64,000 bases of DNA from Perna viridis (lineage: Eukaryota): assembly GCA_037379345.1 (NCBI GenBank), contig CM074512.1, forward strand, positions 63,323,597-63,387,596. Direction: 5' to 3'. Position 1 is the first letter of the stretch. Each line of letters begins with the position of its first letter. Position numbers and translations under genes: made by a program. The notes beneath the pieces are model-generated. The model was not told the DNA's origin, ran no database searches, and worked only from the letters and a program-made list of their open reading frames with translations. This document shows, piece by piece, positions 7,766-17,482 of this stretch.

Positions 7766-8210
7766 GAATACAAGGGAATCAAGCGGGACGACGCCAAAAC
7801 CTACCTGCTCGCCATCATCAATGGGAAGATCGTCAGGGTCAAGCATGACCCTCCGACCTGGCTCCGGGACTACTATGGGGGATGAGGCAGATCATGGAGG
7901 AAGTGATCAAGCTGAATCCTGACCTGCTCGCCTGCGAATCCAAGGAGAAGAGGGGGACGGACTACAATATCGAGGGGACAACCGTGAATTACGTCATGTG
8001 CTCCCTGGAAAATAAGGCTCTGATGGCGGCCTTCGACTACCTGACCGAGCAGGAGATCGAGGTGGGGGCGCTCGTATTCGATGGGCTCATGATTCATAAG
8101 AAGGGGGTTCCACGCACCAGGCTGCCCGAGATTCTCCAAGGCTGCTCTCAGAGGGTGAAGGAGGTCGTCGGGGCTGATATCATCTTCACGGTCAAGGAGA
8201 TGGATGAAGG
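7766..8210 (+). pseudogene. C-terminal fragment of a family-A-like (TVpol-type) polymerase/primase domain
   Basis: KRDDAKTYLLAIING resembles motif B. A frameshift at the G-run near 7876-7881 leads into ...CSLENKALMAAFDYLTEQEIEVGALVFDGLMI, which resembles motif C (E...hhFDG). The 5' part is lost at the element's left break. Confidence 0.6.
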
Positions 8211-9884
8211 GGACCACTCAGATCTGCTGCTACGCAAAGGCGTCTACCCCTACGACTATATGGATAGGTTCGAGAGGCTCCAGGAGACCCAGCTCCCATC
8301 CAAGGAGGCCTTCCGCAGCACGCTCAGAGGGTCTGGGGGGCCTTTGGATGCAAGACCATGCGCGACTATCACGATCTCTATCTCGAGACTGACGTGATCT
8401 TGCTCGCCGACGTCTTCTAGAATTTCCGCGAGATCTGTATGAAGCATTATGGACTCGACCCTGCGCACTACTATACGGCGCCAGGGCTATCATACGACGC
8501 CGCGCTCAAGGTCAGCGGTATCAAGCTGGATCTCATCACCGTCCCCGATATGCTGCTCATGGTCGAGAAGGGGATTCGCGGGGGTCTGACCATGGCGTCT
8601 CAGAGATACGCTCGGGCGAATAATCCCTACCTGCAAGATTTCGACCCGAGCAAGCCGACCAACTATCTGATGTATCTGGACGCTAATAATCTCTACGGGT
8701 GGGCGATGAGTCGGCCCCTGCCCACCGGAGATTTCAAGTGGATCGATCCCTCAGAAGTCCCAGACCTCAGCACGCTCGGTGAGGAGTATGAGCAAGGATA
8801 TATCATGGAGGCGGATCTCGAATATCCCAGGGAGCTCCACGATCGCCATAACGACTATCCCCTCGCGCCGGAATCCATGGTGATCAATGGAGTCAGGAAG
8901 CTGGTGGCCAACCTCCACGATAAGCAGAAATACGTGGTCCACTACGTAAATCTGAAGAAATACCTTGCCTGGGGTCTGAAGCTGAAGAAGATCCATCGCA
9001 CCATCCGATTCACCCAGAGCCCATGGTTGAAGGGGTACGTAGAGAAGAATACGGGTTGCAGGGCGGCGGCTACCACCACCTTCGAGAAGGACTTCTTCAA
9101 GCTCATGGTGAACTCAGTATTCGGAAAGACCATGGAGAATATCCGCAATAGGGTGGACGTCCGGCTGGTCAATAGCGAGAAGGCTGCCCGGAAGCTGGTG
9201 GCCAAGCCTAGCTTCAAGCGCAGGACGGTCTTCAGCGAAGATCTGGCTGCCGTCCATCTGCATCGCACCAAGCTGGTCTTCGATAAACCCATCTACCTAG
9301 GATTCTCCATCCTTGATCTATCAAAGACCCTGATGGCCGACTTCGTCTACGACCATCTCAAGTCCCGGTATGACGACCGACTCAGCATCTGCTTTACGGA
9401 TACGGATAGCTTGATCTGCGATATCCAGACGGCGGACGTATATAAGGATATGGCGGAGAATGTGCAGGAGTGCTTCGATACGTCCAACTATGCCCCAGAC
9501 CATGCCTCCGGGATTCAGCCCGGCGTGAATAAGAAGGTGATAGGCAAATTCAAGGATGAGTGCGCCGGCCAGCCGATGATCGAGTACGTGGGACTCCGAC
9601 CGAAAGCATATGCCTTCAAGGTGGATCGCGAGGAGTGCAAGAGGGCTAAGGGCGTGAAGAAGAGCGTGGTCGAGACCAATCTGACCTTCGCCGACTATAA
9701 GGAGTGCCTGGACACGGGCAGGGAGAAATACTGCGCGATGAATATCATCCGTAGCCGGCTCCACCAGGTCCTTACCCTAGAGACCTGCAAGAAATCCCTC
9801 TACTCCAATGACGATAAGCGCCACATCCTGCCCGACGGCATCAGCACCCTCGCCCATGGTCACTACCAAATCGTCCACGACTAA
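8211..9884 (+). pseudogene. polB: Protein-primed family B DNA polymerase (pPolB), N-terminally deleted
   Basis: Motifs [71 protein letters not shown]. Out-of-frame deletion at ~8318-8326 and in-frame TAG at 8418-8420. The ORF 8439-9884 is open. Confidence 0.95.
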
Positions 9885-9981
9885 GGCATCGATCCACCCC
9901 CACCCTCTCCCACACCAGAATTTCTCGAGGTTCGTAAGCCTCGGGAAATCTTCTCGCTTCGCCGCCCCCACCCCCATCTAT

Positions 9982-10113
9982 ACTTAGCAGGCTCTGATGG
10001 GTGCGGATGCCCATCCCTCCTCTTCAGCACTTGGTAGGCTCTGACGGGTGCGGATGCCCATCCCACCTCTTTGGCACTTGGTAGGCTCTGACGGGTGTGG
10101 ATGCCCATCCCTC
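9982..10113. repeat. 47-bp tandem repeat, ~3 units, intergenic in the viral element
   Basis: Units start at 9982, 10029 and 10076 (ACTTGGTAGGCTCTGACGGGTGCGGATGCCCATCCC...). An inverted single copy lies at 15026-15056. Confidence 0.95.
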
Positions 10114-10122
10114 CCTAGATAA

Positions 10123-10539
10123 ATGGATAAGCCCCTCACCAATCTCGAGCTCGAGCGAGCCGTGAAGAATCTGCATATCCCGCACTTCAGAGGCGTCTTC
10201 ATGCGCGACGATCTGCAGTCGCTGAAGAAGCTGGAGGCCGCTTACGATAAGCTGAAGGCGAAAGTCGTCAACTTGCAGGAGGAGATGCGGCGCATGAAGA
10301 CCGTCGAGAAGGACGATATCACAGCTCTCAGGGGGAGGCTGGACCAAAAAGTGGATAGATCGGATTGCAGCTGCACGAATGGTGGTCAGATGAACGTTGA
10401 TCTCGATATGCAGAAATACCGCATAAAAAATCTCCCACTTCCCCAGAGCGATAATGAGCCCGTCACCAAAGCCCTATACGATCAGCTGGTGAAGGATATC
10501 TACGATGTGAGAGTCTTAGTGCAGATGCATCATCCCTGA
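10123..10539 (+). pseudogene. Chimeric ORF: N-terminus of adenain-like maturation protease fused to a coiled-coil/fibre-like repeat protein
   Basis: MDKPLTNLELERAVKNLHIPHFRGVFMRDDL matches the start of Polinton cysteine proteases, but the catalytic His/Cys region is absent. The remainder is a coiled coil plus GGQMNVDLDMQKYRIKNLPLPQSDNEPVTKALYD, like the 'DMxxxRIxNLxxPxxxxDAxTKxYVD' fibre-type repeat. Confidence 0.65.
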
Positions 10540-10548
10540 GTGCCCCCT

Positions 10549-10593
10549 TATCTGCCTTTTCGGATGCCCCGAGAGCATCCGAAAAGCCATGAT
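10549..10593. terminator. Repeated hairpin motif, copy 1, between convergent viral genes
   Basis: Perfect 12-bp stem CTTTTCGGATGC/GCATCCGAAAAG (10556-10586). Near-identical copy at 12492-12535. Terminator function is inferred from position only. Confidence 0.5.
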
Positions 10594-15798: not shown

Positions 15799-15802
15799 AT
15801 AA

Positions 15803-16387
15803 ATGACGTGTTCCGAGTATGGTCTGAACCTGAGCTCAAGCCAGAGGGATAAGCTCAGACTCGCAGCCAAGCGCAAGCCATGCCCCGTGAGTATCCGACT
15901 ATCGCACGAGAATCTCTCGGGCAACGATAAGTTGCTGCTCACGAATCGGCAGATCCAGAAGATCAATAAGCTCAAGAGGACCGGCGAAGGTGGTATGATC
16001 TTGGAGATGAGCACCACCCAGCTGAAGCAAAATATGCAGAAAGAGGGTGGATTCCTCCCCCATGCTCGCCGGCTTGGCGATGAGAGCCCTCCCCATGGTA
16101 GCGAAGACCGTCCTTCCAGCCTTGCGAGTGGGTGCCTTGAGCGGTCTAGGTGGCGTCGCAGTCAATAAAGCTTTGGGGTCTTTATTATACATCAAGAAGG
16201 GTGGTCAGGTCTGCTGCGTGGAACCTCACGGGAAAGGCTTATATCTCTCCTCAGCCCGACTGCCGAAGACCGTCCAGGGCGACGGCTTATATCTGAAGCG
16301 CGGCGGTAAGATCTACGATGGCTCTGGGTTGATCCTAGGTCCCAATAGCCCTTCAAGGACGTCCCCTTCCTTAACATGCTTCTCTAG
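15803..16387 (+). pseudogene. Putative virion core protein with adenovirus pX-like GGFLP-amphipathic segment and GxGLYL repeats
   Basis: Joining frames across C-runs at ~16058 and ~16350 gives ...QKEGGFLPMLAGLAMRALP...GALSGLGG...HGKGLYL...QGDGLYL...DGSGLILGPNSPFKDVPFLNMLL*. Confidence 0.7.
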
Positions 16388-16399
16388 ACCCCTAGATAA

Positions 16400-16852
16400 A
16401 TGAGTGACGAAGTAGATGATAGACTCGAGGATTTCTTAGAGTCTGAGGTCCAGAAATATGCCCGCATGCTGCGCATCTATAAGCGGTTGGATAAAGTGGT
16501 CTCCATTGCCCTATCCGCGGCTTCCATCAGCAGTCTGCTGCTTACCAGCGGCACCATGGGATCTGCTTTGACCGGAGTAGGCGCTGCTGCTTCCCTCCCC
16601 CTTGGATCCCTCGCTTGCCTAAGTGCTACGACCATACTGGTGCTCTCGCTGATCGCCAAGCGAATCGCCAAGAAGAAGAAGAAGCATCTTGATACTCTCC
16701 GCTTGGCCAGGTCCTATCAGTCTCAGCTTCCGGGTGAAGATGGTGCCCCCGCAGTCTGCCTGAAGAATTACTACGATGGAAAGGATCGGTTACGCCAGCC
16801 CTCGCCTCCTTTCAGCGAAGATCTAGCCAAGCATTCCCAGGGCCCTCGCTGA
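16400..16852 (+). CDS. Membrane protein with hydrophobic hairpin, similar to adintovirus 'GasderminX'-type ORFs
   Basis: Open 150-aa ORF with two small-residue hydrophobic helices (VVSIALSAASISSLLL...GVGAAASLPLGSLACL...LVLSLIA) followed by KKKKKHLDTLRLA. Preceded by TAGATAAATG. Confidence 0.6.
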   Translation: MSDEVDDRLEDFLESEVQKYARMLRIYKRLDKVVSIALSAASISSLLLTSGTMGSALTGVGAAASLPLGSLACLSATTILVLSLIAKRIAKKKKKHLDTLRLARSYQSQLPGEDGAPAVCLKNYYDGKDRLRQPSPPFSEDLAKHSQGPR

Positions 16853-16905
16853 TTCCCACCTCAAATATGGGTTTCCCCATCAGAAAAGGATTCTCCCACG
16901 CCCCC

Positions 16906-17284
16906 TCAAATCACCACTTCAAAGTCGAAGTAGTCATGCCCGCTCTTCTTTGCCTTCTTCATCCCATAGTTATCGATCTTGAGGAGATGCCACTTTTTCC
17001 GCGGTATCCGACCCATCTCCCGGATCATTCTGCTGCACGCCCAGACCTTGGTCTTTACCCCTTTCCTCTCCAGCGTCAGAATCATACCCTCCCCATGCTG
17101 AATTTTCGTCTCCTGGACGTGCACCACTTGGAATAGTTCCCAAGGTAGGTCGCGCCACCTTAGAATCAGCTCGCGTCTGGCCTCCCTTTGAGCCTGTGCC
17201 CTTTCTCACCTCCTCGTCATTCTCTTCCCGCCCGGAACCTAGCAATCGGACGTGCCGATCCATCTTTTGAGATTCGGAATCCAT
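16906..17284 (-). pseudogene. Small viral protein, possibly OB-fold-like, 1 frameshift
   Basis: Start 17284 (GATAAATCATG). The shifted frame reads ELILRWRDLPWELFQVVHVQETKIQHGEGMILTLERKGVKTKVWACS...YGMKKAKKSGHDYFDFEVVI*. The fold is a guess from the beta-rich pattern. Confidence 0.45.
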
Positions 17285-17289
17285 GATTT

Positions 17290-17482
17290 ATCGGAATCCA
17301 AATTTTTTTAATCTATTTTGGTGGCCGGACCCTCCACGCCCCTGATGCCTCGCCCCAAAGCACTTTTCAGCATCCTGACTCGCTCGAGATCCGTTTGCAC
17401 CCCGGAGCCCGAAATTGGGGGTCCTATGCAGGATTTCTGCTTGAAAAGGGGGGTGCGGCAGAATTGTCATTATCATACTACT
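17290..17482. repeat. Probable right terminal (TIR) region of the Polinton
   Basis: Non-coding GC-rich tract ending in ACTACT, followed by GGTCAC (candidate 6-bp TSD half) and AT-rich host DNA. The partner TIR is absent. Confidence 0.6.

Follow-up and report, generated by a model that had tools for sequence, protein, structure and literature searches.

In uninterrupted members of a Polinton family, a complete family-A DNA polymerase (PolA) domain of the TV-Pol type, about 320 aa long, sits in-frame within the protein-primed family-B polymerase (pPolB), where it occupies an exonuclease surface loop between ExoII and KG.YPY. A decayed copy of this family, whose host is probably Mytilus judging from the names of its homologues, was located in the window (the whole stretch of 64,000 nucleotides that was analysed), where the C-terminal half of the nested domain was still recognizable.

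A decayed Polinton in the window

The GC content was 0.549 across positions 7766-17482, compared to 0.332 in the left flank and 0.328 in the right, and a likelihood analysis placed the change points of composition at 7774 and 17461. Therefore, the sharp-edged, GC-rich island in an AT-rich host described in the earlier note was confirmed, as was the ACTACT that terminates its right end at 17482. In contrast, the island could not be called CpG-rich, as CpG was not enriched beyond GC (observed/expected ratio of 0.93 inside, 0.99 on the left and 0.85 on the right). No left terminal repeat was found in the 64-kb window, so that the inner limit of the right terminal region is undefined, and the 6 bases adjoining the right end had no left copy within 1-7765, meaning that no target-site duplication was seen. 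The left boundary of the island is a break midway through the polymerase gene.

The assignment to Polintons or adintoviruses was supported, and parts of the pPolB, integrase, A32 ATPase, protease and double-jelly-roll (DJR) capsid genes remain (Table 1). With the Polintons/Mavericks, which are the same as adintoviruses (PMC8502044; PMC8097293), the island shares pPolB, the A32 ATPase, the DJR capsid, the pX-like core protein and the (ACT)2 right end, along with the C-terminal part and chromodomain of a probable rve integrase and the first codons of a probable adenain protease, and also the degraded state of most of their genomic copies, whereas the nested family-A polymerase sets the pPolB of its family apart. 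Deletions have removed the left arm, the core of the integrase and most of the protease, and the other genes carry frameshifts or stops, at least 12 in total. A near-complete virion module, as had been claimed, was thus an overstatement, with two stops and two frameshifts in the major capsid gene (MCP), three frameshifts in the ATPase and about 35 codons left of the protease.

The pPolB remnant is broken by a frameshift near 8325 and a stop near 8420, and PolB motifs A (8679), B (9099) and C (9393) lie inside the open ORF 8439-9884. This ORF had no match in Pfam or among PDB sequences; PF03175, which some relatives match, did not match it. The protease remnant, N-terminal, matched the proteases of comparison loci L001, L003 and L014 at 60-67%, that of L003 matching Peptidase_C5. 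The integrase is reduced to its C-terminal ~120 residues, which matched the rve integrases of L001 and L002 at 55-57% and aligned solely to residues 151-266 of 270 and 183-292 of 300, respectively; the rve core sits at 8-78 in the former and 40-105 in the latter. The MCP matched those of L001 and L025 at 55%. Homologues of the minor capsid candidate (37-51%) are the gene following the ATPase in L001-L003 and L032, with fitting size and position; as it had no profile match, nor any PDB sequence match, its name is taken from its position and its homology to unnamed relatives. The Adeno_PX match of the L001 and L002 homologues of the pX-like gene was weak (E 0.005-0.007). None of 200 shuffles was as stable as copy 1 of the 45-nt hairpin. 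Of four intergenic repeats tested, one behaved as a terminator hairpin would, so that this role was rejected as a general one, and TAAATG was not found described as a PLV promoter in PMC11296320.

Table 1. Features of the island and its remaining genes (window positions).
Feature	Positions	Strand	Evidence
Decayed one-ended Polinton/adintovirus remnant	7766..17482	+	GC 0.549
C-terminal half of family-A (TV-Pol-like) polymerase domain nested in pPolB gene	7766..8211	+	
pPolB gene, remainder	8212..9884	+	90% identical to P0122 1127-1644; includes 481-aa open ORF 8439-9884
Three 47-nt repeats, head-to-tail, 3' of pPolB stop	9982..10122	+	folding z -0.9, not above shuffles
Adenain-like protease, first ~35 codons, in-frame to unrelated ~100-aa coiled-coil stretch (internal deletion)	10123..10539	+	
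45-nt hairpin repeat, copy 1, flanked by the ends of convergent genes	10549..10593	.	z -5.4
rve integrase C-terminal remnant and chromodomain, without catalytic core	10593..10973	-	Chromo E 1e-5
A32/FtsK-type packaging ATPase, 3 frameshifts	10989..11732	+	Pox_A32 E 8e-7, above cut-off
Fragmented coding-like stretch	11734..12491	+	no match among ORFs of 90 loci or at Pfam cut-offs
45-nt hairpin repeat, copy 2	12492..12535	.	91% identical to copy 1
Conserved Polinton gene, function unassigned, 1 frameshift	12555..13398	+	36-44% to L001/L046 ORFs
Small basic alanine-rich conserved ORF, open	13402..13734	+	34% to L001 5476-5829
Major capsid gene (double jelly roll), broken by 2 stops and 2 frameshifts	13736..15025	+	PF21738 in three pieces
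47-nt repeat, fourth copy, inverted, 3' of MCP stop	15024..15063	-	
Probable minor capsid (penton) gene, with a frameshift likely close to the 5' end	15078..15798	+	37-51% to relatives
Adenovirus pX-like core protein gene, 1 frameshift	15803..16403	+	L001/L002 homologues match Adeno_PX weakly
Hydrophobic 150-aa ORF, open	16400..16852	+	weak match to L012 ORF, E 9e-5
Right terminal region, ends (ACT)2	17287..17482	+	motif as in PMC8097293

The closest named relatives were Mytilus proteins (88-96%, under three Mytilus species names), so that the island would be one old member of a mussel family. In the favoured reading this Polinton family is GC-rich, multi-copy and, as the homologue names suggest, resident in Mytilus, and the genomic copy in the island is dead and truncated on its left. 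Its protein was about 10% diverged from uninterrupted family members. Together with the truncation, the frame breaks (at least 12) and the Mytilus relatives, this divergence gave no support to a fairly recent invasion for this copy, and the missing amelioration would set a loose upper bound on its age and nothing more. A distinct high-GC lineage was upheld in a limited sense, with a GC3 of 0.73-0.79 in five core genes and a GC of 0.549 reached by none of 90 fetched relatives' loci (median 0.374), which were chosen at 38-59% protein identity and in part include host flanks. As to a match with an already described high-copy family, this family is multi-copy, but no published description of it was found, and the seven named members of the P0122 cluster include no adintovirus name. 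A 'Mytilus mussel' Alpha adintovirus appears in Fig. S2 of Starrett et al. 2021 (PMC8502044); it may be the family of the island. The search for episomal relatives in viromes gave no close one, the best viral contigs being at 56% and the best metagenome loci at 59%.

An assembly chimera or a contaminant, instead of an insertion in this genome, would fit with the failure to find a left terminus and a target-site duplication in the window, but was considered very improbable. The heavy decay is consistent with chromosomal residence, Mytilus scaffolds between 31 kb and 2 Mb long carry annotated homologues, and the sequencing runs of one organism label, from three studies, contain 0.34-0.48 of the sampled words; one of them may be the source (rows with a word share <0.2, namely organisms C and D, a fish metagenome and two guessed-RNA runs, were excluded). 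No RNA run was listed among those containing the words, which speaks neither for nor against expression. The polymerase architecture, being seen in other records, is unaffected by this alternative.

A family-A polymerase domain nested in pPolB

In the window copy, PolA motif B (RDDAK) was found at 7784 and motif C (LVFDGLM) at 8071, with a frameshift near 7880, whereas motif A was lost with the left arm. The product of 7766..8211 was 84-96% identical to P0122 and P0121, and a single ORF (7882-8397) passes from PolA motif C directly into the KG.YPY of pPolB. The possibility that 7766-8211 was a separate gene joined to pPolB by deletion was ruled out by P0122. The window copy itself is dead, and none of the polymerase functions proposed below is possible for it. 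The nested domain was absent from the reading of the earlier note.

The relatives were compared as proteins. P0122 and four other cluster members were 1644 aa long and one was 1573 aa, among the matches listed (ENA and Logan records), and the alignment of P0122 with the pPolBs of L001-L010 showed a gap at ~760-1075 only. ExoI-III, PolB motifs A-C and the PolA motifs were complete in P0122, P0182, P0186, P0202, P0214 and P0163; at the level of their sequences, uninterrupted relatives retain the catalytic motifs of both polymerases plus those of the exonuclease. The aspartates of PolA motifs A and C were present in all 42 selected insert-bearing proteins, a conservation that is inflated because these proteins were found by insert similarity and include near-copies. 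The identity of the insert between families (55-60%) resembled that of the flanking pPolB (51-58%), which would imply purifying selection. By eye, a Cys and a His motif were seen in P0122 where the N-terminal TP and vOTU domains are expected, a region deleted in the window copy.

The insert gave no match in Pfam (no PolA), NCBIfam or PDB sequences, and in the Atlas it scored 0.86 to a cluster with 17% PF00476, which was taken as a lead only. As modelled in the relative P0132 (pLDDT 76.9), the insert has a PolA fold: its best Foldseek match was Klenow (E 5e-4), also matched by VIA-align (Z 12.4, rmsd 4.9 across 272 residues), and each of the best 19 VIA-align matches was either a DNA polymerase of family A or a single-subunit RNA polymerase. 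The model of P0153 (pLDDT 80.6) matched phi29 polymerase (E 1e-13) and also family-A enzymes. The insert thus has the palm/fingers fold of PolA and both catalytic aspartates but no exonuclease of its own, the combination that defines TV-Pols. No helicase domain was detected in P0122, P0145, P0153 or P0163, nor in the window remnant, whose left arm is deleted. An intein was considered and rejected, as no H/G-N/Q-C/S/T end motif was found around the three inserts tested, no intein Pfam match was obtained, and the PolA fold accounts for the whole insert.

It seems improbable that the insert is a tolerated relic that does not synthesize DNA and is retained as a DNA-binding or structural appendage. 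Its motif B ends in ING, whereas that of family A usually ends in YG, and the missing helicase partner and the lack of a Pfam PolA match would agree with such a relic, but both catalytic aspartates were kept in 42/42 selected proteins and the same motif forms occur in free PolA-helicase relatives.

Distribution and proposed spread of the insert

The insert was present in 1 of 70 other loci that span the site and missing from 40 of 40 site-spanning proteins among P0001-P0120. As most pPolBs lack it (69/70 loci; 40/40 proteins), the insert is dispensable. A single clade of insert-bearing pPolBs was rejected on both the C-terminal (9 vs 29 rows, p-AU 4.9e-58) and the N-terminal flank (6 vs 20 rows, p-AU 7e-8). 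Besides showing this patchy distribution, related PolA domains occupy three different sites of other pPolBs, namely after DTDS (P0233, P0146, P0144), between a VSR-like domain and ExoI in P0396, whose sequence apart from the insert is 53% identical to that of P0233, and elsewhere in P0279. Two additional sites were found in the Pif1/Tlr1-like replicases P0363 and P0367.

In trees built in quick mode, with SH-aLRT support only, the inserts of sites 1 and 2 were sisters (SH-aLRT 86), and their host pPolBs were 22-24% identical. Distances among the inserts fell only modestly below those among the pPolBs, and the tree of the inserts was star-like, which may reflect one old gain and many losses by recombination. 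The free relatives of the insert are N-terminal domains of helicases, with 44-50% identity to the PolA-UL9-like helicases P0170, P0172 and P0241; the scan against viral contigs gave no match.

The four distinct pPolB sites plus the two in Pif1/Tlr1-like replicases, the non-monophyly on both flanks and the sister inserts in such divergent hosts could also be explained by a selfish in-frame insertion, resembling an intein in its ecology yet devoid of splicing and nuclease parts, although we regard this as unlikely. In a tentative mechanism, the domain would use its own polymerase activity to place copies in pPolB genes that are broken or nicked, perhaps with help from a nuclease domain (EndoVII or VSR) that the host polymerase carries, and would survive only in loops that spare pPolB function. 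Autonomous mobilisation of PolA/AEP genes is proposed in a 2026 preprint (10.64898/2026.10.13.758929), and homing-nuclease inserts are known to accumulate in pPolBs (PMC11071308). However, intein-type end motifs were missing around the three inserts tested, the insert model contains no nuclease, EndoVII is also present in insert-less relatives, and distant pPolBs carry inserts at 55-60% instead of the near-identical ones expected from recent homing. A new kind of selfish element, in the form of an in-frame, non-splicing, nuclease-free polymerase cassette that would insert copies in the replicase genes of Polintons and related viruses, occupying at least four pPolB positions and helicase-type replicases and yielding single chains with the active sites of two unrelated polymerases, is a doubtful prospect.

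Predicted role and relation to known replicases

The account that we favour, and which we hold as moderately probable as a whole, is that of a mussel Polinton remnant from a family whose replicase carries a recombination-spread PolA domain, predicted to be a tethered primase or gap-filler. The replicase is a protein-primed family-B polymerase of ~1,640 aa with a nested family-A domain, the latter putatively captured from a PolA-helicase replicase (the nearest free relatives being PolA-UL9-like SF2 helicases) and passed between co-infecting Polintons through recombination at homologous flanks. The most likely predicted role is that of a tethered primase or gap-filling polymerase, for which the domain would be retained. 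It would prime displaced single strands with DNA primers or restart synthesis at internal breaks, the strand-displacing, proofreading pPolB would then extend these primers, and the tethered PolA would replace the lost helicase partner.

TV-Pols are predicted primase-polymerases (PMC2579912), and the accessible part of PMC7581432 describes an A-family relative that primes de novo together with a partner protein. This priming A-family domain, CCPol-MP of SCCmec, is a possible functional analogue, although in that part of the source CCPol requires a separate small partner and a helicase, unlike the arrangement of the nested insert. That this characterised A-family primase needs an ssDNA-binding partner, and that none was identified for the insert, speaks against a primase role. 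The pipolin piPolB, a second possible functional analogue, is according to the accessible part of PMC5695915 a mobile-element polymerase without primer dependence that primes with its own family-B site.

Virophages and Polinton-like viruses have the same minimal exonuclease-less PolA domain in their TV-Pol/PolA-S3H and PolA-SF2 replicases (PMC2579912; PMC11071308; 10.64898/2026.10.13.758929), where it lies N-terminal to the helicase and replaces pPolB, whereas in the island family it is helicase-less and inside an intact pPolB. The pPolBs with HNH or VSR inserts (Jeong et al. 2023, 10.1101/2023.08.22.554363) likewise bear in-frame foreign domains in loops, and polymerase swapping among marine invertebrate Polintons, reported in the same work, is a shared trait, but the passenger in the island family is a ~320-aa polymerase and no nuclease. 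The SF1 helicase-pPolB fusion of the Oxyrrhis PLV (PMC12721341) also combines pPolB and a second replication enzyme in one chain of 1,500-1,700 aa, the helicase being joined end-to-end and the second polymerase of the island family being internal. No published description of a PolA domain nested in pPolB was found in the literature searched.

A protein-primed family-B polymerase is a defining trait of Polintons. While the island insertion at 7766-17482 is itself an ordinary fossil, a natural primase within a phi29-like strand-displacing polymerase, if true, would be useful to builders of amplification enzymes. With this one protein, priming by the TV-Pols of eukaryotic viruses and the movement of replicase modules between viruses become testable. 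According to current accounts, pPolB and PolA-helicase serve as alternatives, one displacing the other as replicase. An intact chain that contains both polymerases, joined at several independent sites, is a candidate for an intermediate in this displacement.

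Anatomy, composition and kin of the island

The island (7766-17482), a decayed and left-truncated Polinton/adintovirus remnant, has a GC content of 0.549, compared to 0.332 and 0.328 in its two flanks, with change points at 7774 and 17461, and its right end reads ...ACTACT, (ACT)2 being a Maverick end described in the available part of PMC8097293; both the GC island and the right end reported in the earlier note were thus confirmed. In contrast, the CpG richness claimed there was not borne out, as CpG observed/expected was 0.93 within the island against 0.99 and 0.85 in the flanks; therefore, island CpG merely tracks GC. 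The left boundary lies within the polymerase gene. Within the window, no part of the element occurred again in either flank, and the six bases 3' of the right end were absent from 1-7765.

Comparison with the ORFs of 90 fetched loci gave the order: pPolB (protein-primed family-B polymerase) remnant, protease start, integrase tail (minus strand), ATPase, a stretch without assignment, two conserved genes, MCP, probable minor capsid gene, pX-like core gene, hydrophobic ORF and right end. Twelve frame breaks are distributed over five genes (see the table), and the minor capsid gene probably carries one more; deletions have removed the first ~915 pPolB codons, the integrase core and the greater part of the protease. 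Such decay is the usual condition of genomic Mavericks according to the available part of PMC8097293; as a fossil, the insertion in the window is unremarkable and belongs to a known kind.

Features and frame breaks in the window
Feature	Position (strand)	Detail
pPolB		2 frameshifts, 1 stop
ATPase		3 frameshifts
12555 gene		1 frameshift
MCP		2 stops, 2 frameshifts
pX-like gene		1 frameshift
TAAATG at gene starts	10120, 10986, 12552, 15075, 15800, 16397 (+)	6/6 island occurrences
45-nt repeat at gene ends	10549-10593; 12492-12535	hairpin z -5.4; -1.8
Three 47-nt tandem repeats	9982-10122	after pPolB
Inverted fourth 47-nt copy	15024-15063	after MCP
Tandem array, 66-nt	2752-3116
MITE-like element	4754-5391	139-nt arms, 99% complementary
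Broken LINE, reverse transcriptase pieces	18068-20644 (-)	RVT_1 E 6e-9 and 6e-11
Partial inverted copy of broken LINE	28145-28658
Tandem array, 33/34-nt	27141-27274
Open frame, 276 codons, AT-rich flank	23530-24360 (-)	no Pfam match
Open frame, 195 codons, AT-rich flank	36062-36649 (-)	no Pfam match

TAAATG, expected 0.96 times in the island under an order-2 model and found six times, is an A/T-rich start signal retained in a 55% GC element, and it resembles the poxvirus late promoter; gene starts in the related loci L001-L003 are A-rich, without the exact word. The 45-nt repeat folds into a strong hairpin and is possibly a transcript-end signal. Folding of the 47-nt repeats was not above that of shuffles. 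The broken LINE lies ~600 bases beyond the right end.

In the insert and in the genes for pPolB, integrase, MCP and minor capsid, GC3 values of 0.73-0.79 show little amelioration. The recent germline invasion proposed earlier was nevertheless not supported, because the copy is so decayed that little amelioration is insufficient to show recency. The island GC was reached by none of the 90 related loci (median 0.374), and in GC content the family therefore ranks high among its relatives.

The closest named homologues of the left-end fragment were proteins of Mytilus coruscus and M. galloprovincialis (94-96%). The cluster of the pPolB P0122 (20 members, 15 listed, 7 named) and that of P0003 include gene models of M. 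galloprovincialis, M. coruscus and M. edulis, spread over several scaffolds. By these names the host would probably be a mussel of the genus Mytilus. At least six of the members listed are uninterrupted, five with a length of 1644 aa and one with 1573 aa (mutual identity 91-99.8%), and the PolB part of the window is 88-90% identical to them. In the sequencing-run index, 0.24-0.50 of the sampled words were present in 12 of the 24 rows listed, from five studies, one row of which may be the source.

Architecture, fold and motifs of the nested polymerase

No match was found between the first 450 bases of the island and the pPolBs of L001-L010, and a search of longer proteins gave 54 matches among 360 candidates, including P0122, a 1644-aa pPolB that aligns with ordinary pPolBs apart from residues ~760-1075. 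The junction is visible in the window, where ORF 7882-8397 passes from LVFDGLM to KGVYPY. From FIDS to KG.YPY, the distance is about 40 residues in pPolBs lacking the insert and about 350-360 in those bearing it.

A model of the insert, built on P0132 with a 23-row alignment (pLDDT 76.9), had Klenow as top match both with Foldseek (E 5e-4) and with VIA-align (Z 12.4, rmsd 4.9, 272 aligned), in which rows 1-19 were without exception family-A DNA or single-subunit RNA polymerases. The model of P0153 (1162 aa, pLDDT 80.6, linkers of low confidence) matched both phi29 polymerase (E 1e-13) and enzymes of family A. ExoI-III, PolB A-C and PolA motifs were complete in 6 of the 10 proteins scanned with the insert at site 1, the exonuclease loop before KG.YPY; the other four were truncated or deviated at one pattern. 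A profile search retrieved 4576 relatives at E 0.001, and Pfam detected a UL9-like SF2 helicase in 12 and a D5/S3H-type helicase in 10 of 32 selected; these relatives are the TV-Pol family, as described in the available part of PMC2579912. The database protein P0304 is a PolA-NUDIX-UL9-like helicase fusion.

Patchy distribution and phylogeny of the insert

Once the 20 loci not spanning the insertion site were excluded, the insert was present in 1 of 70 (L028). Among proteins P0001-P0120, none of the 40 spanning the site carried it, and 80 were not scorable by motif, one of which (P0105) starts within the insert. Site-1 inserts were found in several distinct families, mostly from unnamed assemblies: P0122, P0153 (320 members), P0145, P0163, P0143, P0383 and P0384. 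A second insert-bearing family in M. coruscus gene models (P0124, P0128, P0137, P0140 and others) is 60-73% identical to the window fragment, several of its models being chimeric predictions; P0148, an insert-bearing pPolB fragment labelled as a Candidatus Thiodiazotropha MAG, probably stems from host DNA that was sorted into the bin of the symbiont.

For the C-terminal part, thinning by identity reduced 107 rows to 44, from which four of unknown status and two long branches were then dropped. In the resulting tree, the nine insert-bearing rows required five changes, at least three of them forced, and a single clade was rejected (p-AU 4.9e-58); the exonuclease part at the N terminus concurred (26 rows, four changes, p-AU 7e-8). 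Therefore, the insert was repeatedly gained or lost, independently of either flank.

Domains related to the insert are also present, in frame, at three further positions: directly after DTDS (site 2) in VSR-type pPolBs (P0233, P0146, P0144); in P0396 of the same family, where the domain separates the VSR-like domain from ExoI; and in P0279, a pPolB of PF03175 type. The VSR label is based on motifs and the available part of Jeong et al. (10.1101/2023.08.22.554363) rather than on a profile match. In a quick-mode PolA tree of 70 rows, P0396 not included, site-1 (97) and site-2 (99) inserts were sisters (support 86), placed with weak support amid SF2-linked PolAs; helicase labels were Pfam-checked for 17 of 20 SF2 and 10 of 30 S3H rows, the others being assigned by length. 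P0279, P0363 and P0367 were placed elsewhere. The PolA-like domains inside the latter two, a Pif1-helicase replicase and a 1744-aa GIY-YIG-tailed replicase, are apparently separate captures.

Proposed origin and role of the insert, and novelty of the architecture

The PolA domain was probably captured from a PolA-helicase gene and would spread by recombination between Polintons in one host. Alternatively, it could be a selfish in-frame insertion copying itself into replicase genes, as its many insertion sites would suggest, but it has neither intein ends nor a nuclease, and no near-identical inserts were found among distant hosts. The insert would probably act as a tethered enzyme that primes synthesis or fills gaps, with pPolB extending what it makes. 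Most relatives of insert-bearing pPolBs manage without it, which counts against a functional role. In the available parts of the sources, priming by TV-Pol is a prediction (PMC2579912), and the A-family enzyme of SCCmec needs a partner protein in order to prime (PMC7581432).

The open-access papers and preprints searched contained no account of a PolA domain lying within pPolB, and neither did the available parts of 10.64898/2026.06.19.733378, PMC12721341, PMC11131425, PMC11071296, PMC13215967, PMC11296320, PMC8097293 and PMC10061031. As far as the accessible portions go, Jeong et al. report HNH and VSR inserts only, PMC11071308 describes PolA-S3H as an alternative to pPolB, with nuclease inserts, and 10.64898/2026.10.13.758929 describes PolA-SF3, two PolA-SF2 cases and genomes carrying two replicase genes; the nested form could be among the architectures in Fig. 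5D or the supplements of the last. Labels in Fig. S2 of PMC8502044, also available in part, include Mytilus Alpha adintovirus, and the present family may already be deposited (File S2/Table S1 therein). In its architecture, with a polymerase of family A lodged inside one of family B and four insertion sites, the replicase of the family appears to be new.
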